The notes beneath the pieces are model-generated. The model did no database searches and was not told the DNA's origin. It saw only the letters and a program-made list of their open reading frames with translations. From an uncultured Geobacter sp. (GTDB lineage: Bacteria > Desulfobacterota > Desulfuromonadia > Geobacterales > Pseudopelobacteraceae), in NCBI GenBank assembly GCA_964609805.1, contig CAZSTJ010000001.1, positions 1-62,796 on the forward strand: DNA of 62,796 nt, read 5' to 3'. Shown here one piece after another: positions 8,739-43,829 of the stretch (within the stretch, counting starts at the first letter, position 1; each line of letters opens with the position of its first letter). A program made the position numbers and the translations under genes.

Positions 8739-9710
<972 letters not shown>

Positions 9711-9723
9711 GGTGACGAACGCC

Positions 9724-9826
9724 TTTGCGCCATCTCCGCGGTGGATTTCGGATTTACGTTGTGCGGCGTAGCGCTGCTACGCCTCCGCCGAAATCCTCAT
9801 CCGCCACAGAGCTGGCATCAAAATCG
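9724..9826 (+). repeat. nif intergenic structured repeat, copy 1 (after nifH)
   Basis: Starts 14 nt after the nifH stop. The core is GTTGTGCGGCGTAGCGCTGCTACGCCTCCGCCGAAATCC, with hairpin GGCGTAGC/GCTACGCC and outer pairing GGATTTCGG/CCGAAATCC. Near-identical to 11460-11563. Confidence 0.8.
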
Positions 9827-9998: not shown

Positions 9999-11441
9999 AT
10001 GTCAAAGATACGAACTGTTGAAGGTATAACAAAGGAATCCACCGAGGCCCTCATTGCAGAAACTCTGGCGGTCTATCCCGAGAAAGCTAAAAAGAAACGT
10101 GCACCGCACCTGGGTGCCAATGATCAGGCGTCCGGCAGTGCCTGCGTCAAGTCAAACAAGAAGACCGTTCCCGGTGTCATGAGCGCCCGCGGCTGTGCCT
10201 ATGCCGGTGCCAAAGGTGTTGTCTGGGGCCCGATCCGCGATATGGTTCATGTGTCCCACGGCCCGGTCGGCTGCGGCTGGTACTCCTGGGGCACCCGTCG
10301 TAACCTGGTGACCGGCATCAACGGCGTCACTCAGTTCGCCATGCAGTTCACCTCCGATTTCCAGGAAAAGGACATCGTCTACGGCGGTGACAAGAAGCTG
10401 AAGACCCTGCTGAATGAAGCCCATGAGCTGTTCCCGCTGGCCAAGGGGATCTCGGTCCTCTCTGAATGTCCGGTCGGACTGATCGGCGACGACATCAACT
10501 CTGTTGCCAAGCAGACCTCCAAGGAGCTGGATATCCCGATTATCCCATGTAACTGCGAGGGTTTCCGCGGGGTTTCCCAGTCGCTGGGGCATCACATCTC
10601 CAACGACACCATCCGTGACTACATCATCGAGACCCGTGAGTTCGCCGAGCCTTCCAGCCCCTACGACATCTCGCTGATCGGTGACTACAACATCGGCGGC
10701 GATGTCTGGTCGGCCAAGTCCCTGCTGGAAGAGATCGGCCTCAATGTCAAATCGGTCTGGACCGGCGACGGCGAGCTGGAGAAGATCGCTGCTACCCACA
10801 CCGTCAAGTTGAACCTGATCCACTGCTACCGTTCCATGAACTACATGTGCAAGGTCATGGAAGAGAAATACGGCATCCCCTGGTTGGAGTTCAACTTCTT
10901 CGGCCCGACTAAGATCCGCGAGAGCCTGCGTGCCATTGGTGCCCGCTTCGACCAGACCATCCAGGATAAGGTTGAGATCGCCATCGCCAAGTATGAGCCG
11001 ATCATGAAGGCCATCGTCGATGAGTACCGTCCGCGACTGGAAGGCAAAAAGGTCATGCTGCTGGTCGGCGGTCTCCGTCCGCGTCATACCATCGGCGCTT
11101 ATGAGGACCTGGGTATGGAGTGCGTCGGTTCCGGCTATGAATTCGCCCACACCGATGATTATGACCGTACCGCCCCGGAAATGCCGGAAGCCACGGTGGT
11201 GTATGACGATCCGTCCGAGTACGAGTTCGAGAAGTTCGCCCATGCCCTGAAGCCGGACCTCATCGGTTCAGGTATCAAAGAGAAATATGTCTTCCAGAAG
11301 ATGGGCATCCCGTTCCGTCAGATGCACAGTTGGGACTACTCCGGTCCGTATCACGGCTACCAGGGCTTTGAGATCTTCGCCCGGGATGTGGATATGGCGG
11401 TGAACAGTCCGACCTGGAAACTGGTCAAGGCACCATTCTAG
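9999..11441 (+). CDS. nifD: Nitrogenase molybdenum-iron protein alpha chain
   Basis: 480 aa. Motifs 'VSHGPVGCG', 'CYRSMNY' and 'GYEFAH' are typical of NifD FeMo-co/P-cluster ligation. Confidence 0.97.
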
Positions 11442-11636: not shown

Positions 11637-13106
11637 ATGTCAAACGCACTCGGACTTGAAATCAAAAAGGTCACCGAATATACCGCCGAAGAGGTGGAGA
11701 CGACTAAAAACTGGATCAACTCGGAAGAGTACAAAGAGAAGAACTTTGCCCGCCAGGCGCTGGTGATCAACCCGGCCCATGCCTGTCAGCCGCTGGGTGC
11801 CCAGTTGGCGGCCCACGGTTTCGAAGGGACCCTGCCGTTCGTTCACGGTTCCCAGGGGTGTGCCTCCTACTACCGTTCCACCCTCAATCGTCATTTCCGT
11901 GAACCGGCCCCTGCAGTGTCGGACGCCATGACCGAAGACGGCGCCGTGTTCGGCGGCCAGAACAACCTGCACGAGGGTCTGGAAAACGCCCATGCACTGT
12001 ACAAACCGAAAATGATCGCCGTCTTCACCTCCTGCATGCCGGAGGTCATCGGTGACGATCTGACCGCCTTCATCAAGAACGCCAAGCAGAAGGGGCATAT
12101 CCCCAAGGAACTGCCGGTACCCTACGCCAACACCCCCAGCTTCAACGGTACCCATATTCATGGCTATGACTCCATGCTGAACTCGATCCTGCAGTACCTG
12201 ACTGAAGGCAAGCAGGTTGAGGGGCGCTGCACCGGCAAGCTGAACCTGATCCCGGGCTGCGACTTCAATACCGGCGACTACCGTGAATACAAGCGCATCC
12301 TGAAGGAGTTCGGCATCCCCTATACACTGCTGGCCGATATCTCCGATACCTTCGATTCGCCCTGCGACGGCACCTATAATATCTATGCCGGCGGCACCAA
12401 ACTGGAGGACACGGCCGATTCGATCAACGGTAAGGCCACTATCGCCATCGGTCCCTATGCGACACCGAAGACCTTCAGCTTCATCAAGGACAACTTCTCC
12501 GGTAAGCATGTCTCCCTGCCGATGCCGATGGGTATTGAAAAGACTGATGCCCTGATCATGAAGATCGCCGAACTGTTCGGCAAGGATGTGCCGGAATCCT
12601 TGAAGAATGAGCGCGGCAGGGCCGTCGATGCCATGACCGATTCACAGCAGTACATGCACGGTAAGAAGTTTGCCGTCTATGGTGACCCGGACTATCTGAT
12701 GGGGTATGTATCCTTTCTGCTGGAGATGGGCGCCCGCCCGTACCACATCCTCTGCAGCCGCGGCAGCAAGAAGGCCGAGAAGGAACTTCAGGCGCTGCTG
12801 GATGGTTCCATGTACGGCGCAGGGTGCAAGATCTACATGAACAAGGACCTCTGGCACCTGCGCTCCCTGCTGATGACCGACAAGGTCGATGCCGTCATCG
12901 GCGACACCCACGGCAAATTTGCCGCCCGTGACGCCGGCGTGCCTCTGTTCCGCTTCGGTTTCCCGGTATTCGACCGGGTCAACAAGCACCGCTACCCGAT
13001 CATCGGCTACCAGGGGATCATCAACATGGTCACCGAGATCTGCAACAAGTTCATTGATATCAAGGATGAGACGTGTGAAGACCGCTTCTTCGAGATGATG
13101 CGCTAA
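11637..13106 (+). CDS. nifK: Nitrogenase molybdenum-iron protein beta chain
   Basis: 489 aa. Motifs 'ACQPLGA', 'HGSQGCASY', 'TSCMPEVIGDD'. Confidence 0.97.
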   Translation: MSNALGLEIKKVTEYTAEEVETTKNWINSEEYKEKNFARQALVINPAHACQPLGAQLAAHGFEGTLPFVHGSQGCASYYRSTLNRHFREPAPAVSDAMTEDGAVFGGQNNLHEGLENAHALYKPKMIAVFTSCMPEVIGDDLTAFIKNAKQKGHIPKELPVPYANTPSFNGTHIHGYDSMLNSILQYLTEGKQVEGRCTGKLNLIPGCDFNTGDYREYKRILKEFGIPYTLLADISDTFDSPCDGTYNIYAGGTKLEDTADSINGKATIAIGPYATPKTFSFIKDNFSGKHVSLPMPMGIEKTDALIMKIAELFGKDVPESLKNERGRAVDAMTDSQQYMHGKKFAVYGDPDYLMGYVSFLLEMGARPYHILCSRGSKKAEKELQALLDGSMYGAGCKIYMNKDLWHLRSLLMTDKVDAVIGDTHGKFAARDAGVPLFRFGFPVFDRVNKHRYPIIGYQGIINMVTEICNKFIDIKDETCEDRFFEMMR

Positions 13107-14193: not shown

Positions 14194-16953
14194 ATGGCCA
14201 AACCCGATTGGTATGATGCCGACAATTGCGAGACCCACGACAAGGGTGCGCCGAAATTTTGCAAAAAATCAGAGCCGGGTGAGGGAACCGAGCGCTCCTG
14301 CGCCTATGACGGTGCCAGGGTCGTGCTGATGCCCATAACTGATGTAATCCATCTGGTACATGGCCCGATCGGCTGTGCCGGGAATTCCTGGGACAACCGC
14401 GGTGCCCGCTCCTCCGATTCTCAGCTGTACCGGCGCGGATTTACCACGGAGATGCTGGAAAACGACGTTATCTTCGGCGGCGAGAAGAAACTCTACAAGG
14501 CGATCCTCGACCTGGCAGAGCGTTACAAGGACCAGGCCCGGGCCATCTTCGTCTACGCCACCTGCGTAACCGCCATGACCGGTGATGATGTGGAGTCGGT
14601 CTGTACGGCGGCAGCGGCCAAGGTGTCCATCCCGGTCATCCCGGTCAACACCCCTGGTTTCATCGGGGACAAAAATATCGGCAACCGTCTGGCCGGCGAA
14701 ATCATGTTCAAGTACGTCATCGGCACTACTGAACCGCCGGTTCTGGGAGAATACCCGATCAACCTGATCGGCGAGTACAACATCGCCGGGGATCTCTGGG
14801 GGATGCTGCCGCTCTTCGACCGGTTGGGGATCCAGGTCCTTTCCTGTTTCAGTGGCGACGCTAAATTCGAAGAGCTACGCTACGCCCATCGGGCCAAGCT
14901 GAACATCATCATCTGTTCCAAATCCCTGACTAACCTTGCTAAGAAGATGCAGAAAGCCTACGGCATGCCGTATCTGGAGGAGTCGTTCTACGGCATGACC
15001 GATACCGCCAAGGCGCTGCGTGACATCGCCCGCGAGCTGGACAACATCGTCAACGGTCTGGAGAAGCGGACCATGCAGGACCGGGTGGAACGGCTGATCG
15101 CAGAAGAAGAGGCAAAATGCCGGGCAGCCATCGCACCCTACCGTGCCAGGCTGGAAGGGAAGACCGCCGTACTGTTCACCGGGGGGGTCAAAACCTGGTC
15201 GATGGTCAATTCCCTGACCGAGTTGGGCGTGGAAGTCCTGGCGGCCGGAACCCAGAACTCAACCCTGGAGGATTTCTACCGCATGAAGGGGTTGATGCAC
15301 AAGGATGCCAAGATCATTGAGGACACCTCCACAGCCGGTCTGCTGGCGGTGATGCGCGATAAGATGCCGGACCTGATCGTGGCCGGCGGCAAGACTAAAT
15401 TTCTGGCACTGAAGACCAAGACCCCGTTTATGGACATCAATCATGGCCGATCGCACCCCTACGCCGGTTACGAAGGGATGGTGACCTTCTCCCGGCAGCT
15501 GGACATGACGGTCAACAACCCGATCTGGGCGACCCTGAATGCCCCGGCCCCCTGGGAGAAGAGCGACGATGAACTGGCCGGTGACCTGGCCGCCAGTGCA
15601 GGGCATGGCGAAACGTTTCTGGGTGAGGATATCTCTGCGTCGCGGGTCAAGGTCTCGACCAAAGCCGCCACGGTCAACCCCCAGAAAAACTCCCCTGCCC
15701 TGGGAGCCACCATGGCCTACCTGGGAATCGACAATATGCTGGGGCTGCTGCATGGTGCCCAGGGGTGCTCGACCTTCATCCGGCTGCAGTTGTCGCGGCA
15801 TTACAAGGAATCCATCGCCCTCAATGCCACCGCCATGAGCGAGGACAGTGCAATCTTCGGCGGCTGGGAGAACCTGAAGAAGGGGATCGGCCGAGTGATC
15901 GAGAAGTTCCAGCCCCAGGTGGTGGGGGTCATGACGACCGGTCTGACCGAAACCATGGGCGATGATGTCAACAGTGCCATCAAGCAGTTCCGTGAACAGA
16001 ACCCGGAACATGACGGGGTCCCGATCATCTGGGCTTCCACGCCGGACTACTGCGGATCGCTGCAGGAAGGATATGCGGCGGCGGTGGAGTCGATCGTCTC
16101 CAGCCTGGCTGAGGGGGGGACGACCATGCCTGACCAGGTCAATCTGCTGCCGGGTGCTCACCTGACCCCGGCCGACGTGGAGGAGCTGAAAGAGCTGGTG
16201 GAGTCCTTCGGTCTGACGGTGCTGACGGTCCCGGATATCTCCAATGCCATGGACGGCCATATCGATGAGGTGGTATCACCCCTGTCTACCGGAGGTATCA
16301 CCGTCGAGGATATCAGGAAGGCGGGGCGGAGCGTCGCGACGCTGTACGTCGGTGATTCTCTTGCCAAGGCCGGTCTCAAGCTGAAGGAAAAATTCGGCAT
16401 CCCGGCCTACGGCTTCACCTCCCTGACCGGGCTTGCCGAGACCGACCGCTTCATGGAAGTGCTCTCTGCCATCAGCGGCCGGCCGATCCCGGAGAAGCAT
16501 CGCCGCTGGCGTTCGCGCCTCATGGACGCCATGGTGGACAGCCACTATCAGTTCGGCACCAAGCGGGTGGCGATCGCCCTGGAGTCCGACAACCTGAAAA
16601 CGCTGACCGGCTTCCTGGCCGGCATGGGGTGCGAGATCCAGGCGGCGTTGTCAGCTACCCGTACCCGTGGCCTGGACGGACTGCCCAGCGCCAATGTCTT
16701 TGTTGGTGATCTGGAGGACCTGGAGACGGATGCCGTCGGGGCAGATCTGATCGTGGCCAATTCCAACGGCCGTCAGGCAGCAGCCAAGCTCAAGATCGGC
16801 GCCCACCTGAGGGCCGGAGTGCCGGTGTTTGACCGGTTGGGTGCCCATCAGAAGGTTTGGGTCGGATATCGCGGTACGCTGAATTTGGTGTTCGAGGCCG
16901 CCAACCTGTTCCAGGCCAATGCCAAGGAGGCCCAGAAGTTGGCGCACAACTAA
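14194..16953 (+). CDS. nifEN: Fused nitrogenase FeMo-cofactor scaffold protein NifE-NifN
   Basis: 919 aa. The N-terminal half is NifE-like ('CAYDGARVVLMPITDVIHLVHGPIGCAG'). The C-terminal half is NifN-like ('NPQKNSPALGATMAYLGIDNMLGLLHGAQGCSTF'). They are joined by an acidic linker. Confidence 0.9.
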   Translation: MAKPDWYDADNCETHDKGAPKFCKKSEPGEGTERSCAYDGARVVLMPITDVIHLVHGPIGCAGNSWDNRGARSSDSQLYRRGFTTEMLENDVIFGGEKKLYKAILDLAERYKDQARAIFVYATCVTAMTGDDVESVCTAAAAKVSIPVIPVNTPGFIGDKNIGNRLAGEIMFKYVIGTTEPPVLGEYPINLIGEYNIAGDLWGMLPLFDRLGIQVLSCFSGDAKFEELRYAHRAKLNIIICSKSLTNLAKKMQKAYGMPYLEESFYGMTDTAKALRDIARELDNIVNGLEKRTMQDRVERLIAEEEAKCRAAIAPYRARLEGKTAVLFTGGVKTWSMVNSLTELGVEVLAAGTQNSTLEDFYRMKGLMHKDAKIIEDTSTAGLLAVMRDKMPDLIVAGGKTKFLALKTKTPFMDINHGRSHPYAGYEGMVTFSRQLDMTVNNPIWATLNAPAPWEKSDDELAGDLAASAGHGETFLGEDISASRVKVSTKAATVNPQKNSPALGATMAYLGIDNMLGLLHGAQGCSTFIRLQLSRHYKESIALNATAMSEDSAIFGGWENLKKGIGRVIEKFQPQVVGVMTTGLTETMGDDVNSAIKQFREQNPEHDGVPIIWASTPDYCGSLQEGYAAAVESIVSSLAEGGTTMPDQVNLLPGAHLTPADVEELKELVESFGLTVLTVPDISNAMDGHIDEVVSPLSTGGITVEDIRKAGRSVATLYVGDSLAKAGLKLKEKFGIPAYGFTSLTGLAETDRFMEVLSAISGRPIPEKHRRWRSRLMDAMVDSHYQFGTKRVAIALESDNLKTLTGFLAGMGCEIQAALSATRTRGLDGLPSANVFVGDLEDLETDAVGADLIVANSNGRQAAAKLKIGAHLRAGVPVFDRLGAHQKVWVGYRGTLNLVFEAANLFQANAKEAQKLAHN

Positions 16954-18736: not shown

Positions 18737-18852
18737 CCAGCTCCCTTCTCCCTCAGGGAGAAGGGAGCTGGAAGCCGGATGAGGGGGAAACGTGCTGCAA
18801 AATCTAACACTGCCCCCTCACCCTACCCCTCTCCCTTATGGAGAGGGAGCGT
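18737..18852. repeat. Palindromic REP-like element (CCCTCTCCC..GGGAGAGGG family) between the nifX-like gene and draT
   Basis: CCAGCTCCCTTCTCCC-TCAG-GGAGAAGGGAGCTGG ... CCCCCTCACCCTACCCCTCTCCC-TTAT-GGAGAGGGAG. Same family as the insert at 41635-41733. Confidence 0.7.
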
Positions 18853-18878: not shown

Positions 18879-19673
18879 ATGAGCAACGGTTCCTTTAACT
18901 ACTGCAACCTCCCTCCCTGGGTCATCGCCTCCCGCCATTTCAATGACAATCCCCAACCCCTGGAGATTCAGGGTGTCAAGGAAGCCAATCGCTTCCTGTT
19001 CGATAAACTGGCCGGCATTGCTGACCAGGAGGAACGGGCCCTGGTCTTCAACGACTTTATGTCGGTGAAGTTTCAGCTCCATCATTGGCAGGAACAGACG
19101 GTCACCGCCGGCAAGAGTATCAAGAACAGCTACCTCCGCTTCCTGCGCGGCTGGATGATGGATTCCAACTCCATCGAGGGGGCGGTGCTGAAGCGTTGGG
19201 TGGAGAGCCGCATGGGTATCACTCCCACCTATCACCGTGCCCGCATTTCCGGTATTCACAGCGAGGCCTACTTCGATTTCTCGGTGGATGTCATGAAGGG
19301 GAGCGCCCGTACCAACGCCATCCAGTCGCAGTTGGACCTGCTCTACGAATACTGCCAGTTTGAGCTCCATCGCAGGTTTCCCTTTGAGGCAACGATCCGG
19401 CTGTACCGGGGCACCTACGATGCCAGTGAGCATGACGTCATCGAGCAGACCGGCAAACGGGAACAGATAGTGCGGCTCAACAATCTGGTGTCGTTTACCT
19501 CGGACGAGGAGCGTGCCTGGGAATTCGGCTCCACGGTCTGGGAGACCGGGGTGCCGCTCTGCAAGATCTTCTTTTACAACGACCTTCTGCCGGGCAGCAT
19601 CATGAAAGGGGAAGGGGAATACCTGATCATCGGTGGGGAGTACCGGGTACGGCAGGTGATGTGCACGGTGTAG
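18879..19673 (+). CDS. draT: NAD+--dinitrogen-reductase ADP-D-ribosyltransferase
   Basis: 264 aa. 'PPWVIASRHFNDNPQPLEIQGV', 'SYLRFLRGWMMDSNSIEGAVLKRWVESR' and 'QLDLLYEY' match my recollection of the DRAT family. ART triad-like 'LYRG', 'SFTSD', 'GEGEYLIIGG'. Confidence 0.8.
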   Translation: MSNGSFNYCNLPPWVIASRHFNDNPQPLEIQGVKEANRFLFDKLAGIADQEERALVFNDFMSVKFQLHHWQEQTVTAGKSIKNSYLRFLRGWMMDSNSIEGAVLKRWVESRMGITPTYHRARISGIHSEAYFDFSVDVMKGSARTNAIQSQLDLLYEYCQFELHRRFPFEATIRLYRGTYDASEHDVIEQTGKREQIVRLNNLVSFTSDEERAWEFGSTVWETGVPLCKIFFYNDLLPGSIMKGEGEYLIIGGEYRVRQVMCTV

Positions 19674-25540: not shown

Positions 25541-25650
25541 GAAAAAAAACGGGTCACCATATCGTTGAGATATTTCGGCGACCCGGCTGTCTCAGGGAGA
25601 CCCTTGGGCTTTCCGTCCCATCCTCGCGGATGGTTTAGTATTATCGTCTG
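25541..25650 (-). promoter_or_regulatory. GEMM-I class cyclic-dinucleotide riboswitch with intrinsic-terminator expression platform
   Basis: The minus-strand RNA is ..ACUAAACC-AUCC-GCGA-GGAU-GGGACGGAAAGCC..GAGACAGCCGGGUCGCCGAAAU. This matches the Vc2 core GCAAACC-hairpin(GNRA)-GGGACGCAAAGCC...GGGGUUACCGAU. Terminator GGGUCGCC/GGUGACCC plus U8 lies at 25541-25584. Confidence 0.55.
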
Positions 25651-29861: not shown

Positions 29862-29962
29862 TGCTTATCGAGAGTGGTGGAGGGAAAGGCCCTGCGAAAC
29901 CACAGCAACCGGCCAATCAAGGCGACAGGTGCTAATTCCTGCCGAAAGGCAAAGATGAGAGG
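29862..29962 (+). promoter_or_regulatory. SAM-I (S-box) riboswitch
   Basis: CTTATCGAGAGTGGTGGAGGGAAAGGCCCTGCGAAACCACAGCAACCGG...AGGTGCTAATTCCTGCC..AAAGATGAGAG matches the S-box consensus (cTTATCaAGAG.GG.GGAGGGA..GGCCC..GAA.CC.GCAACC...GGTGCtAAttCC...AGATGAG). Confidence 0.85.
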
Positions 29963-33594: not shown

Positions 33595-33773
33595 CCGATC
33601 TGCTCCCGGTGCCTGAAAGTGGCGATGAATGTTTAATGAAACCGTATTTCCGTGAATATATATCAGAAATCGAGATAAATGGTAGCCGTTTTGATGAAAT
33701 ATTTCATTTTGACGGCACGCTGCCACGGATAAATTGAATTGACAGTGGACCGTCAATATTCTAGTTTATCGAA

Positions 33774-33856
33774 AACGCTGGGGGAGTTTCGACTGAGAGC
33801 GGCTGAGGGCCGCGACCCTTCGTACCTGATCCGGGTAATGCCGGCGTAGGGAAGCG
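33774..33856 (+). promoter_or_regulatory. TPP (THI-box) riboswitch
   Basis: CGCTGGGGGAG..CTGAGAGCGG..ACCCTTCGTACCTGATCCGGGTAATGCCGGCGTAGGGAAGCG matches the THI element consensus (CTGAGA ... ACCCTT.GAACCTGATC.GGTAATACC.GCGTAGGGA). Confidence 0.85.
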
Positions 33857-33874
33857 CAAAAGTCCAGGACTTGA

Positions 33875-38913: not shown

Positions 38914-40323
38914 ATGGGGAAAACCATCACCATAGGACCGGTCACCCGTATTGAAGGTCATGCCCGGATCGCCATCCGCCTGGATGAGGGGGGCGGTGTT
39001 GCCGACGCCCGTCTTCAGGTTCAGGAGTTCCGGGGGTTCGAATCGTTCTGTGTCGGCCGACCTTTCTGGGAGATGCCGGCGATTACCGCACGGATCTGCG
39101 GCATCTGCCCGGTCAGTCATGCCCTGGCCGCAGCCATGGCTGGCGACCGTATCCTCGGCAGTGAGCCCCCCCCTGCCGCACGGGGATTACGAACCGTGCT
39201 CTCTCTGGCCCAGTTGATTCTCAGTCATTCCCTCAGTTTCTTTCACCTTTCCGCACCTGATATCGTCCTCGGTCTGGATGCGAATCCGGCCGACCGGAAC
39301 ATTGCCGGCCTGGCAAAATATCACCCGGAGCTGCTCCGGAAGGGTATCCGCCTGCGTCAGATCAGCCAGGAGATTGTCAACCTTGTCGGCGGCGGCCATC
39401 TGCATCCGGAACATGTTGTTGCCGGCGGGATGCGGCAGCCATTGGCTGCGGAGGGGCGTGATGCCATCGCAGCCCTGCTCCCTGAGGCCCATGGACTGGT
39501 CGGACTTGCCGTCCGTGTCTGGGAGGAACACCAGGGGCGATTCCTGGCTGAAATGGGCGACTGTCCGGAGGTTGCCGGACTCTCCCTGGGATTGGTGGGT
39601 GACGATGGCTGTCTGAACCACCTGACGGGGCGGCTTCGTTTCGTCGATGGTTCCGGAATGACTGTGCGGGAGGTTGCCGCGGCAGGGTACGGCACTGTTA
39701 TCCGTGAAACCGTGGCCGGCGATAGCTATATGAAGCCGACGGAGTCTCTGGTGGAGGATGCCCCTTTCTACCGGGTCGGTCCGCTGGCCAGGTTGCGTGT
39801 CGCTCCCTTCAGGGATACCCCCCAGGCCGAACAGACCCGCCTGTTTTTCCTTGCAGATGAGGTGCTCTCCTCTTCGCCCCTCGGGTCTCACCAGGCCCGT
39901 CTGATCGAGATGCTCTACGCCGTAGAGCGGCTGTCCGCGATGATAACCGACCCCGCACTCTGCGACCCTCATGTGCTGTCCCGCGGCACGGTGGTTGCTA
40001 ATGAAGGGATTGGCGTTACCGAAGCCCCGCGGGGTACCCTGATCCATCACTATCAGGTGGACCGGACCGGTCTGCTGACCCGGGTTAACCTGATCGTGGC
40101 CACGGGGCACAACAGCCGGGCCATGGACCGGACCATCACCGCCATCGCCCGGCGGCACCTGACCGGTGACACGCTCTCTGAAGGGCTCCTCAACCGGGTT
40201 GAACACGGCATCCGTCTCTATGACCCCTGTCTCTCCTGTGCCACGCATCTGGAGGGTCGCCGGGGGGTGACGGTTGAATTGCTCTCGCCCCACGGCAAGG
40301 TGCTGGACAGCGTTTGCCGGTAA
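38914..40323 (+). CDS. [NiFe]-hydrogenase large (catalytic) subunit, group-3-like, without an adjacent small subunit
   Basis: N-terminal 'VTRIEGH', '[10 protein letters not shown]'. C-terminal 'DPCLSCATH' plus a ~24-aa extension. 469 aa. Confidence 0.8.
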
Positions 40324-40338
40324 GGTTACTATTATCAG

Positions 40339-42450
40339 ATGAACTCCGAAGTCTCTCCCTTTCAACTTAAAAGTGATTACATCCCCCGGGGTGATCAGCC
40401 CCAGGCCATCGAGGAACTGGTGACCGGCCTCGAGCGTGGTGACAAACACCAGGTACTGCTCGGCGTCACCGGTTCGGGCAAGACCTTTACCGTTGCCAAC
40501 GTCATCGCCCGAACCGGCCGCCCGGCCCTGGTGCTGGCCCCCAACAAGACCCTGGCAGCTCAACTGTACGGCGAATTCAAGGAACTCTTCCCGGACAATG
40601 CCGTTGAATATTTCGTCTCCTATTACGATTACTACCAGCCGGAAGCCTATCTCCCCACCACTGACACCTTCATTGAGAAGGATTCGTCCATCAACGATGA
40701 GATCGACAAACTGCGCCACTCAGCCACCCGCTCGCTGCTGACCCGGCGCGATGTGATCATCGTGGCCTCGGTCTCCTGCATCTACGGCATCGGCTCGCCA
40801 TCAGAATACGCGGCGCTGCACATCTTCTTCCACCAGGGGGAGGAGTATGGCCGGGATGAGTTGATGAAGAAACTGGTGGAGATCCAATACGAGCGAAATG
40901 ACACCGATTTCCATCGCGGCACCTTCCGGGTGCGGGGTGATGTGGTGGAGGTCTTCCCGGCCTACGACAGCGAAAAGGCGCTCCGGATCGAGTTCTTCGG
41001 CGACGAGGTGGAAGCCATCAGCGAGATTGACCCGCTGCGGGGCACGGTGCTGCAGAAACTCAGCAAATGTGCCATCTACCCGGCTTCCCACTATGTCTCC
41101 AGCAAGGAGACCATGGAGCGGGCCATCGAACAGATCCGGATCGATCTGGGGGAGCGAATTCGCCACTTCCGGGCCCAGAACATGCTACTGGAGGCCCAGC
41201 GCATTGAACAGCGCACCTTCTATGACATCGAGATGATGGAGGAGATGGGGTTCTGCCAGGGGATTGAGAACTACTCCCGCTATCTTGACGGCAGGCAGGC
41301 GGGGGAGCCCCCCTACACCCTGATCGACTACTTTCCGGAGGATTTCCTCCTATTCATCGATGAATCCCATATCACCGTTTCCCAGGTGGGGGGGATGTAC
41401 CGGGGGGACCGTTCCCGCAAGGAGACCCTGGTCCAGTTCGGTTTCCGCCTGCCGGCGGCCCTCGACAACCGCCCGCTCAATTTCCAGGAGTTTGAACAGC
41501 GGATAGGGCAGGCGGTTTATGTCTCAGCCACCCCTTCCGACTACGAACTGGAAAAAAGTGAAGGAGTGGTGGTGGAGCAGGTCATCCGACCCACCGGCCT
41601 GGTGGACCCGATTATCGAGGTCAGGCCGGTGACGGCACTCCCTCACCCCAACCCTCTCCCAGAGGGAGAGGGGATAAATTCTACCCTCGCCCTTAGGGAG
41701 AGGGTGGCCGAAGGCCGGGTGAGGGGCAATGTTGGACAGGTGGACGACCTCCTCCACGAGGTGCGGCTGACCGTCGCCGCCGGTGAACGGGTCCTGGTGA
41801 CTACCCTGACCAAGCGGATGTCGGAGGAGCTGACCAACTACTACCGCGAACTGGGGGTGCGGGTGAAATACCTCCATTCCGATATTGATACCATCGAGCG
41901 GATGCAGATCCTGCGGGACCTGCGTATGGGAGAGTTCGACGTGCTGGTGGGGATCAACCTGTTGCGCGAGGGGCTCGACCTGCCGGAGGTATCACTGGTG
42001 GCAATCCTTGACGCCGACAAGGAGGGCTTTCTCCGCTCGGCCCGCTCCCTGATCCAGACCTGTGGCCGTGCCGCCCGCAACGTGAACGGCCGAGTGCTCA
42101 TGTACGCCGACCAGATCACCCGTTCCATGAGATCCTGTATAGACGAGACAGAGCGGCGTCGCGCCAAACAGCTGGCCTACAATGCCGAGCACGGCATCAC
42201 CCCCGAGACGGTGGTCAAGAGCATGCGCACCATCCTGGAGTCCATAGAGGAGAAGGATTACTACACCCCCCTTGGCAACCGGGTGGCCGAGGCCGAGGAA
42301 GAGTACATCTCCCCGAAGGATATCCCCAAGCTGGTCAGGAAGCTGCGCAAGGAGATGCTGGCGGCGGCCAAGGCGCTGGATTTCGAGATTGCCGCGAAGC
42401 TGCGGGATCGGGTTAAAAAGCTGGAAGAGATGGAGCTGGCACTGCGGTAA
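40339..42450 (+). CDS. uvrB: Excinuclease ABC subunit B (carrying a 33-aa repeat-derived insertion)
   Basis: '[12 protein letters not shown]', '[13 protein letters not shown]', 'DESH', '[25 protein letters not shown]', and the C-terminal UVR motif '[16 protein letters not shown]'. Confidence 0.95.
41635..41733. repeat. Palindromic REP-like element inserted in frame within uvrB
   Basis: CCCTCACCCCAACCCTCTCCC-AGAG-GGAGAGGGG..ACCCTCGCCC-TTAG-GGAGAGGGTGG..GGGTGAGGGG. It is 99 bp, translated as [33 protein letters not shown] between the conserved 'IEVRPVT' and 'GQVDDLL'. Confidence 0.8.
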
Positions 42451-42542: not shown

Positions 42543-43829
42543 ATGGCAGATGAAATGGTTGATCCCCTCAAGCGGGTTGCAGAACAACTGAAGAAATGTG
42601 TCAAGTGTGGTGCCTGTCGCCAGAATTGTCCGGCCTTTACCGCCTTCGGCCGCGAACCGGCCGTTGCACGCGGCAAGGTGGCATTGGCCCAGCATCTCCT
42701 CAAGGATGATATCGGGCTGGACGACCAGACCTACCAGGCCATGTCCAAGTGCCTGCTCTGCGGCAGCTGCGTGGATAAATGCCCCAATGACGTCCCGACG
42801 GATGAGATCGTCATCGCCGCCCGTGAGGCCTTGGCAAAGAAGCGGGGGTTGACGACCTTCCATGCGGCCGTCGGCCAGGTAATCAAGAACCGCACCCGAA
42901 TGAAGATGGGGGCCAGGATGGCCAGCCTGCTGGGGCCGCTCTTTTTCAAGAAGATCCCCGAGACCTCCGGTCTGCGGCTCCGTTTCCCGATGCCATTCGT
43001 CGGGGGACAGCGCCATATCCCGACCATAGCCAAGAAGCCGTTCATGGACCGCCATCCCGAGGTTATTCCCGGCGAGCCGGGGAAACCGCGGGTCGTCTTC
43101 TTTGTGGGATGCATGACCAACTTTGTCTATACGGAGGTCGGAGAGGCGACTCTGGCCCTGTTCAGGCACCTGGGGTGTACGGTCATCATCCCCAAGGGAC
43201 AGCAGTGCTGCGGCCTGCCCGGCATGTCCGGCGGTGATATCGGCACGGTGCGTGAGCTGGCAGAGAAGAATCTGGAGGAGCTGGAGCGCTACGAAGCCGA
43301 TTACGTCATGAGTGCCTGCGCCACCTGCGGAGGTGCGCTGCACCGGCTCTACCCGCTGGTGGTGGGAAAGCGCAACCCCGAGCTGAAGGAGCGTCTGGAG
43401 GTGTTGGCCGCCAAGACGGTGGATGCCTCGCAACTGCTGCACAAGCTGGGACTCAACCCCGAGGAGACCGGTGCCGGCGAACAGGTCCGCGTCACCTATC
43501 ATGATCCGTGCCACCTGCGCAACCAGGGTCTGAGCAAACAGCCCCGGGCGCTGCTGAAGGGGACACCGGGGGTGGAACTGGCCGAGATGGAGGGGGCCGA
43601 CCGCTGTTGCGGTCTCGGCGGTACCTTCAACGTGTATCATTACGACTCGTCCATGACCATCAACGAGGCCAAGAGCCGGGCCATCATTGCCACCGGAGCC
43701 GCAGCCGTGGCAACCGGTTGCCCCGGCTGCATGATGCAGCTCTCCGACGGTCTCAAACAACACGGCTCGAGGGTCGAGGTCGTTCATACCCTGCAACTGC
43801 TGGCACGACGGTTGAAATTGTTAAAATAA
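42543..43829 (+). CDS. (Fe-S)-binding oxidoreductase subunit, GlcF/HdrD-like (2x4Fe-4S plus two CCG domains)
   Basis: 'CVKCGACRQNCP', 'CLLCGSCVDKCP', 'CCG' motifs at 'GQQCCGLPG' and 'ADRCCGLGG'. Confidence 0.75.
   Translation: MADEMVDPLKRVAEQLKKCVKCGACRQNCPAFTAFGREPAVARGKVALAQHLLKDDIGLDDQTYQAMSKCLLCGSCVDKCPNDVPTDEIVIAAREALAKKRGLTTFHAAVGQVIKNRTRMKMGARMASLLGPLFFKKIPETSGLRLRFPMPFVGGQRHIPTIAKKPFMDRHPEVIPGEPGKPRVVFFVGCMTNFVYTEVGEATLALFRHLGCTVIIPKGQQCCGLPGMSGGDIGTVRELAEKNLEELERYEADYVMSACATCGGALHRLYPLVVGKRNPELKERLEVLAAKTVDASQLLHKLGLNPEETGAGEQVRVTYHDPCHLRNQGLSKQPRALLKGTPGVELAEMEGADRCCGLGGTFNVYHYDSSMTINEAKSRAIIATGAAAVATGCPGCMMQLSDGLKQHGSRVEVVHTLQLLARRLKLLK

Follow-up and report, generated by a model that had tools for sequence, protein, structure and literature searches.

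The stretch of DNA analysed here (the window) comprises 62,796 nucleotides of contig CAZSTJ010000001.1 from an uncultured Geobacter sp. and carries a uvrB gene whose coding sequence contains a 99-bp palindromic insert in frame. Judged by its sequence, this insert consists of two BoxC/PIT/TM_ECO "intrastrand triplex" units inverted relative to each other and is not a classical repetitive extragenic palindromic (REP) element. We show that, throughout a Geobacteraceae/Desulfuromonadales clade, the codon junction in which it sits is a hot spot for inserts that are palindromic and mostly of triplex type, and that the constraint on the window's type of insert acts on the nucleic acid and not on the peptide. 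The features of the locus are the following.

40339 to 42450, plus strand: uvrB coding sequence, host of the insert; open reading frame (ORF) of 703 residues, with matches to UvrB structures of the PDB down to E 1e-263 and with the Pfam UvrB domains

41635 to 41733, plus strand: in-frame insert of 99 bp, or 33 codons (residues 433-465), free of stop codons; a gap in all solved UvrBs

41640 to 41672, minus strand: unit 1, reading CCCTCTCCC-TCT-GGGAGAGGG-TTG-GGGTGAGGG on the minus strand, the plus strand encoding 11 residues (triplex-pattern scan)

41673 to 41683, plus strand: inter-unit spacer GATAAATTCTA, which varies among orthologous copies in the alignment of the type-A inserts defined below

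41684 to 41725, plus strand: unit 2, reading CCCTCGCCC-TTA-GGGAGAGGG-[TGGCCGAAGGCC]-GGGTGAGGG and encoding 14 residues (triplex-pattern scan)

A preliminary description of this DNA had placed at 41635-41733 a stop-free, in-frame segment of 99 bp made of nested inverted repeats. The ORF and its translation bear out the first point, and all the repeats are present in our repeat analysis. The outer inverted repeat opposes CCCTCACCC at 41640-41648 to GGGTGAGGG at 41717-41725; the inner ones are CCCTCTCCC-AGA-GGGAGAGGG (41652-41672) and ACCCTCGCCCT-T-AGGGAGAGGGT (41683-41705). The whole can be described as a nested palindrome formed by an inverted ("convergent") pair of intrastrand-triplex-type units. 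The second loop of unit 2 also holds a mini-hairpin, GGCC-GAA-GGCC (41706-41716), that the preliminary description had missed. The strong messenger RNA hairpin that it had anticipated is recovered by prediction, with an RNA fold of -72.6 kcal/mol (z = -6.2 against shuffles), while the DNA fold reaches -33.5 kcal/mol (z = -5.8). No Rfam family matched at the insert site, and an exact-protein look-up of the window's UvrB returned no record. On the template (minus) strand, positions 41640-41660 read GGGAGAGGGTTGGGGTGAGGG, a canonical G-quadruplex motif as far as its letters go, and the plus strand of the insert contains GGGAGAGGG-N12-GGGTGAGGGG. Formation of a G-quadruplex would compete with the hairpin and triplex folds of the insert.

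Alignment to solved UvrBs confirmed that the junction precedes the second RecA-like domain and lies in a loop. In every solved structure, query residue 431 aligns with chain residue 427 and query residue 466 with chain residue 429 (2FDC numbering), so that the insert, flanked by IEVRPVT on its N-terminal side and by the GQVDDL helix on its C-terminal side, stands in for a single residue of "VRPT-K-GQIDDL". The insert-bearing loop connects the last strand before domain 3 ("IEVRP") with the first helix of domain 3 ("GQVDDL"). The insert is predicted to be unstructured. Indeed, in an AlphaFold model built on 49 relatives, residues 433-465 have a predicted local distance difference test score (pLDDT) below 50 and form hardly any regular secondary structure; the model is low overall (mean pLDDT 57) and was used solely for the unstructured state of the insert.

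Variation at the junction was followed in the 120 closest UvrBs (81-92% identity; Geobacteraceae/Desulfuromonadales by source names), in outgroups taken from a full-length UvrB scan of a genome collection, and in a metagenome scan with a degenerate peptide pattern that yielded 112 loci with DNA. Among the 120 closest homologues, the spacing from TGLVDP to QVDDL ranges from 9 residues, which is the insert-free state of the solved structures, to 68, and 115/120 have between 3 and 59 extra residues. As had been expected for other UvrBs, the outgroups lack the insert: all 80 species among the matches listed (57-65% identity, many phyla) keep the 9-residue spacing. The 96 distinct metagenomic sequences divide into 40 without insert, 16 short forms and 40 with inserts of at least 10 residues. 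From QVDDL to the stop codon, the length is uniform in the clade (235-237 residues); thus, UvrB length variation in the clade is confined to one junction. The inserts form 21 BLAST clusters and belong to at least seven unrelated families. We distinguish the following types.

Type A: the window's type, found in at least 24 UvrB clusters

Type B: peptide GRQIPLNPPLLKGD..PPFEKGG.GGI

Type C: peptide TPPQSPPKLGGE..

Type D: peptide PPSQPPPAGGRSQIPSPSGGG

Type E: peptide with SD.SD repeats

Type F: peptide PFDSAQG..GERSRT

Type G: peptide KPHPHPNPPLEGEG..LPLQGGGREGDG

Type H: peptide ..LSPGGGELERG

These data do not fit the single landing in this genome that the preliminary description had proposed, given the presence of type A in at least 24 related UvrB clusters, of an insert in 115/120 homologues and of at least seven families. 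Nor do the relatives share one homologous, non-palindromic segment: their segments are palindromic and of several unrelated families. Each major type is a strong nested palindrome at the DNA level (z from -4 to -10), while some degraded inserts have z around 0. Triplex-type units, which are close to zero in shuffles, were detected in all inserts of types A (8/8), A+H (2/2), B (7/7) and G (2/2), in half of those of types H (2/4) and C (2/4), in 2/8 of the other inserts and in none of type E (0/6). Some insert peptides are chimeric, namely P0018, in which a G-type left half is joined to an A-type right half, P0030 and P0058; P0042 is a nested double insert, and short forms of 5-7 residues are also present. 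In locus L141, a second pair of 78 bp is placed exactly in the GAA loop of the mini-hairpin. The nearest relatives of the window by core sequence (P0003, P0005 and P0008) have short forms only. Type A, for its part, reaches across the full depth of the clade, and the type of insert is only weakly tied to core UvrB distance (0.110 vs 0.114, p ~0.04); the nearest core neighbour bears the same type in 40/98 cases, vs 13% by chance.

It is scarcely credible that the segment is an assembly artefact, or that it is removed after transcription or bypassed in translation. Palindromes do disturb assemblies, and at this very site the metagenome contig L113 ends in a fold-back duplicate (9689-9815), with the anchor pattern on both strands about 65 nt apart and flanking the insert hairpin, a configuration that the palindrome apparently produced during assembly. 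However, homologous in-frame inserts, those of type A among them, occur in independent NCBI, JGI, ENA and Logan assemblies, including a complete 4.2-Mb chromosome, and the insert is therefore not an artefact of the window's assembly. Moreover, every complete insert copy is 3n long and stop-free, as translation would demand, even though only two of the six reading frames through the element are open.

The assignment of the insert to the BoxC/PIT/TM_ECO group comes from the published TM_ECO pattern, 5'-CCCTCNCCC N3-6 GGGNGAGGG N3 GGGNGAGGG-3' (Holder et al. 2015, PMC4666352). The units share with these elements the 9-nt blocks CCCTCNCCC, GGGNGAGGG and GGGTGAGGG, and an architecture of one C-rich and one G-rich stem with a G-rich mirror "third strand". 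Unit 1 (minus strand, 41640-41672) fits the pattern exactly, and unit 2 (plus strand) fits it save for its second loop, which has 12 nt with its own mini-hairpin instead of 3 nt. The shorter pattern CCCTCNCCC-N2-8-GGGNGAGGG occurs twice in the window, both times within the insert, for an expected number of 0. Units of this type may fold as hairpins or intrastrand triplexes, and a sequence check showed that the insert has the mirror repeat required for a purine-motif triplex.

There is also direct sequence identity to E. coli copies. BLAST of the insert gave matches in 3519/5426 E. coli genomes, with 90-92% identity over about 40 nt and 78% over 74 nt; no annotated feature lies under them among the matches listed. 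In one E. coli strain, the wcaA-wzc spacer shows the convergent two-unit architecture of the insert, including the CCCTCGCCC asymmetry (a conserved G mismatch) in the second unit. BoxC/TM_ECO elements were reported in 3610 copies in 262 proteobacterial genomes (PMC4666352). Five inverted pairs are known in E. coli, each made of a TTA-loop unit and a CCG-loop unit (PMC4666352), and in the pair described here a TT(A/G)-loop unit is likewise associated with one of CCG type. In TM_ECO copies the stems are conserved and the loops variable, and E. coli strains show hypervariable host loci whose flanks are unusually rearranged (PMC4666352); conserved stems, variable loops and a host locus that is hypervariable among relatives are also what we observe. 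The main departure is the location. While the 23 copies of E. coli MG1655 are "always located intergenically" (PMC4666352), the window copy lies inside a conserved coding sequence. It further differs by the 12-nt loop of unit 2 and by its host, which is Geobacter-like (Desulfuromonadales) and not an enterobacterium. The 12-nt loop recurs in intergenic copies of relatives, and the uvrB copy therefore belongs to a local subfamily.

The preliminary description had called the element a REP-like mobile palindrome. It probably does belong to a dispersed palindromic family, but this family is not REP: no GTAG or CGTC tag is conserved, the only GTAG of the window's insert (minus strand) being in the spacer and not kept in the other eight type-A copies with DNA. 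The resemblance to REPINs, which are REP doublets forming hairpins and mobilised by RAYT transposases (Bertels & Rainey 2011, PMC3116915), is thus one of architecture. Two inverted palindromic units with a variable spacer are predicted here to form one long hairpin, with conserved arms and diverse spacers as in REPINs, but without their conserved GTAG tag. Of the features of a miniature inverted-repeat transposable element, outer inverted arms are seen in the insert, and a flanking CGGC...CGGC direct repeat in most relatives but not in the window. In-frame palindromic repeats are known from Rickettsia palindromic elements (RPEs; Ogata/Claverie), BRE and intragenic REPs (PMC3184786), and for G. 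metallireducens the published genome description speaks of multicopy sequences "even within genes" (PMC2700814). As with intragenic REPs and RPEs, we are dealing with short palindromes in frame in a conserved protein, presumably read as extra loop residues. The uvrB insert is, like RPE-like repeats, palindromic, in frame and missing from orthologues elsewhere. Those elements are nevertheless GTAG-/CGTC-tagged REPs or RPEs, unrelated in sequence, and their orthologous sites keep one element type by descent, whereas the uvrB junction shows many families, nesting and replacement. In addition, RPE-like repeats have in-frame copies in many genes, which were not seen here in about 1 Mb of DNA, in which not every match outside the site was checked.

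Outside the junction, a triplex-pattern scan of the whole window found one other locus.

18743 to 18851, no strand assigned: intergenic sibling pair, with a plus-strand unit at 18743-18784 and a minus-strand unit at 18808-18851, in "divergent" order

The preliminary description had noted this sibling at 18737-18852. It is real, intergenic and of the same family, with its two units in the opposite relative order to those of the insert. It sits between ORFs, directly upstream of a draT-like ORF (18879-19673). In locus L199, a pair with the sibling's variant blocks CTTCTCCC and GGATGAGG (15075-15194) adjoins a DRAT gene, and the draT-adjacent position seems to be a further conserved slot of the family.

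Around the uvrB genes of the clade, about 1.02 Mb of DNA contains 53 units in the uvrB site (29 loci) and 26 units outside it, while control loci of other phyla contain 12 units in 1.36 Mb. By coordinate count, 15 of the 26 units outside the site are found no more than about 100 nt past the stop codon of uvrB, spread over at least six lineages. Repeats are therefore drawn to uvrB at two places, inside the gene and just downstream of it. Units past the stop codon were located at L103:3911-3948, L109:4326-4353, L124:915-946, L137:5743-5836, L139:769-858, L151:1432-1463 and L198:12115-12222, among others; the window's uvrB has no triplex-type unit just past its stop codon. C/G-rich hairpins about 725-790 nt past QVDDL had been candidates for a second intragenic hot spot, which we rejected since the uniform 235-237 residues from QVDDL to stop place them after the stop codon. 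BLAST of the inserts against the masked loci gave only three matches outside uvrB. Those outside copies whose position was checked occupy the space between called genes or follow directly on the stop codon of uvrB. No other conserved gene with such an element was seen in the approximately 1 Mb, where the outside matches were not all checked individually. A peptide search for other in-frame hosts returned short hypothetical ORFs only, and, having missed even UvrBs, it is a weak negative.

The window, L182, L193, L196-L200 and L081 supplied nine orthologous type-A inserts whose DNA could be compared with the coding sequence around them. Of these, L193 is OW818669.1, one of the complete genomes of the clade. 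Third codon positions in the flanks are 50-67% identical, vs 76-89% for the insert, which is conserved near-equally across the three codon positions. Within the insert, identity is 93% in stem columns (92/95/94 by codon position) and 62% in unpaired spacer columns (63/66/58), the latter being about the synonymous level. Stems are thus held at all codon positions while spacers drift like synonymous sites, and therefore the constraint is on the nucleic acid and not on the peptide. The idea of a tolerated loop, put forward in the preliminary description, is right as to the location, but "merely tolerated" is too weak for stems at 93% against spacers at 62%. In L198, a lineage-specific loop variant, ATGAG/CTCAT, is common to both uvrB-internal hairpins (11285-11383) and to the intergenic unit 3' of uvrB (12115-12148). 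This suggests exchange between copies about 730 nt apart in one genome.

These comparisons make it very improbable that the insert is an adaptive protein loop, that is, that the clade needs a longer, flexible Pro/Gly-rich UvrB hinge and that palindromy is incidental to CCN/GGN codons. Nearly all members of the clade are extended, and inserts are Pro-rich then Gly-rich in the translated frame, as this explanation would have it. Yet the complementarity extends to positions other than C/G and to loops, conservation is equal at the three codon positions with spacers neutral at positions 1 and 2, and the inserts of the SD-repeat and FDSAQG types are not Pro/Gly-rich. Finally, identity to E. coli intergenic DNA shows an origin at the DNA level.

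Alternatively, the hairpin or triplex in uvrB DNA or messenger RNA could be a functional element kept for modulating uvrB expression. This might occur through pausing of RNA polymerase or of the ribosome at the boundary of two helicase domains, through a processing site or through a supercoiling sensor. The position exactly at a domain boundary, the return of the same architecture with different sequences, stems that hold at every codon position next to spacers and synonymous sites close to saturation, and the presence of such repeats immediately 3' of uvrB in at least six lineages are all in its favour. We nonetheless consider it improbable: no compensatory changes were seen, the close relatives with short forms (P0003, P0005 and P0008) lost or never had the structure, degraded inserts with z around 0 exist, and PIT elements were reported to have no promoter, terminator or RNA-polymerase effects in E. 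coli (PMC4666352).

Another possibility is that the insert is a neutral passenger, a selfish or junk palindrome without effect in an all-tolerant loop, whose stem conservation is a by-product of concerted evolution with genomic copies. Spacers that evolve at about the synonymous rate, an insert without codon-position pattern and spacer distances uncorrelated with host distance are what it predicts. So are the tolerance of 3-59 residues of unrelated sequences, with some lineages having none, and the loop variant that L198 shares between its uvrB insert and the neighbouring intergenic copy. Chance insertion, however, fails to explain at least seven families at one codon junction when no other gene was seen with such an element among the outside matches checked in about 1 Mb of flanking DNA and when donor copies are sparse (the 26 units per 1.02 Mb outside the site). 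It does not account either for the dominance of insert-bearing forms in the clade (115/120) despite palindromes being deletion-prone. We therefore regard this explanation as rather unlikely, although it deserves serious consideration.

The reading that we favour, and think probable, is that triplex/hairpin repeats took up residence in a permissive hinge loop, which became their slot and in which they are turned over by nesting, replacement and exchange with other genomic copies. A first palindrome would have been captured in the permissive, disordered hinge loop, the only survivors being insertions that were 3n long and stop-free in one of the two open frames. The resident non-B-DNA element would then render the site unstable, as reported for E. 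coli TM loci, and receptive to further hairpin elements. Further turnover would proceed via insertion into hairpin loops and via template switching or gene conversion with other genomic copies, with selection for a working UvrB filtering the outcomes to in-frame variants. The insert peptide itself would not be a target of selection.

Several observations weigh against this reading of a resident slot. The insert is presumed to be read through as a 33-residue Pro/Gly-rich loop, and its translation is deduced from frame conservation. No transposition machinery, RAYT genes included, was found here, though the ORFs of the window were not scanned for PF01797-type proteins; BoxC/TM elements in general have no known associated transposase or transposition machinery (PMC4666352). 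There is no clear target-site duplication at the insert; a CGGC...CGGC direct repeat flanks it in many relatives' copies, not in the window. No significant base-pair covariation was detected, including for the two local hairpins, and the long hairpin shows three double changes only, all in L198; the stems are simply invariant, and a requirement for structure is therefore not separable from a requirement for sequence. Spacer distance does not follow flanking synonymous distance (Mantel r = 0.01, p = 0.40), with nine sequences, which are too few to separate vertical descent from repeated replacement. The UvrB core tree is poorly resolved, hence the number of independent insertion events is uncertain, and the counts of outside copies are those of about 1 Mb of flanking DNA rather than of whole genomes.

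The nature of the host gene raises a further question. Intragenic REPs concentrate in replication and excision-repair genes, namely uvrA, a UvrB homologue, uvrC, uvrD, polA and dnaE2 (Di Nocera et al. 2013, PMC3733652). It is conceivable, if speculative and on balance improbable, that the tie between non-B-DNA repeats and nucleotide excision repair (NER) genes is not accidental, the hinge and the equally favoured position past the stop codon being a maintained docking site and not a scar. In one version, UvrAB processing of such structures may help the repeats to move or exchange, making NER genes preferred landing sites; in the other, the uvrB element may be a cis sensor that couples uvrB expression or local mutability to the load of structures. 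The gene uvrB, which the preliminary description had called essential, is a conserved repair gene that E. coli is not known to need for viability.

In-frame repeats in repair genes are thus already known, and what is new is the BoxC type, the hot spot and the conservation at the nucleotide level. In the searchable literature, we found no BoxC/TM elements inside coding sequences, no case of many unrelated repeat families sharing one codon junction as their slot and no comparison of stem and spacer rates with coding sequence as the clock. Widespread and highly conserved, BoxC/TM repeats still lack an explanation, and neither a mobility mechanism nor a function is known for them. One orthologous slot in a universally conserved gene, occupied by many families and with the flanking coding sequence as a clock, is a natural experiment that permits measuring gain, replacement, nesting and loss of elements as well as selection on stems. 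Our finding extends an earlier observation that had drawn little notice, the concentration of intragenic palindromes in repair genes, and it indicates that a triplex-type repeat, classed as such from sequence, can be carried in the hinge of a helicase, with translation deduced from the frame. It is also a warning for annotation and phylogenetics, as UvrB length variation in this clade is repeat-derived and metagenome contigs can break at the site.

Further observations concern the surroundings of the insert. Just upstream of it, a perfect 10-bp inverted repeat (41592-41601/41622-41631) was considered as a host hairpin serving as an insertion target, and rejected. It shows no excess complementarity at wobble positions in 96 sequences and, being neither conserved nor covarying in these relatives, is probably a codon-driven coincidence. 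In the window, uvrB is neighboured by an ORF resembling a NiFe-hydrogenase large subunit and by an ORF with Fer4/CCG domains (38914-40323 and 42543-43829), a flanking synteny common to L193-L195 and L197. Upstream of uvrB in L199 (8501-10019), a 110-residue ResIII/DEAD fragment and a DUF1016/YhcG-type gene overlapping the uvrB start were noted; this region may have arisen through duplication of the 5' end of uvrB and insertion of a nuclease gene. Upstream of the 18.7-kb sibling, a long ORF (14194-16953) resembles, judged by eye, a NifE-NifN fusion. Elsewhere in the window, Rfam detected at gathering score a SAM riboswitch (29862-29961, plus strand), a TPP riboswitch (33770-33869, plus strand) and a c-di-GMP-I riboswitch (25574-25649, minus strand).

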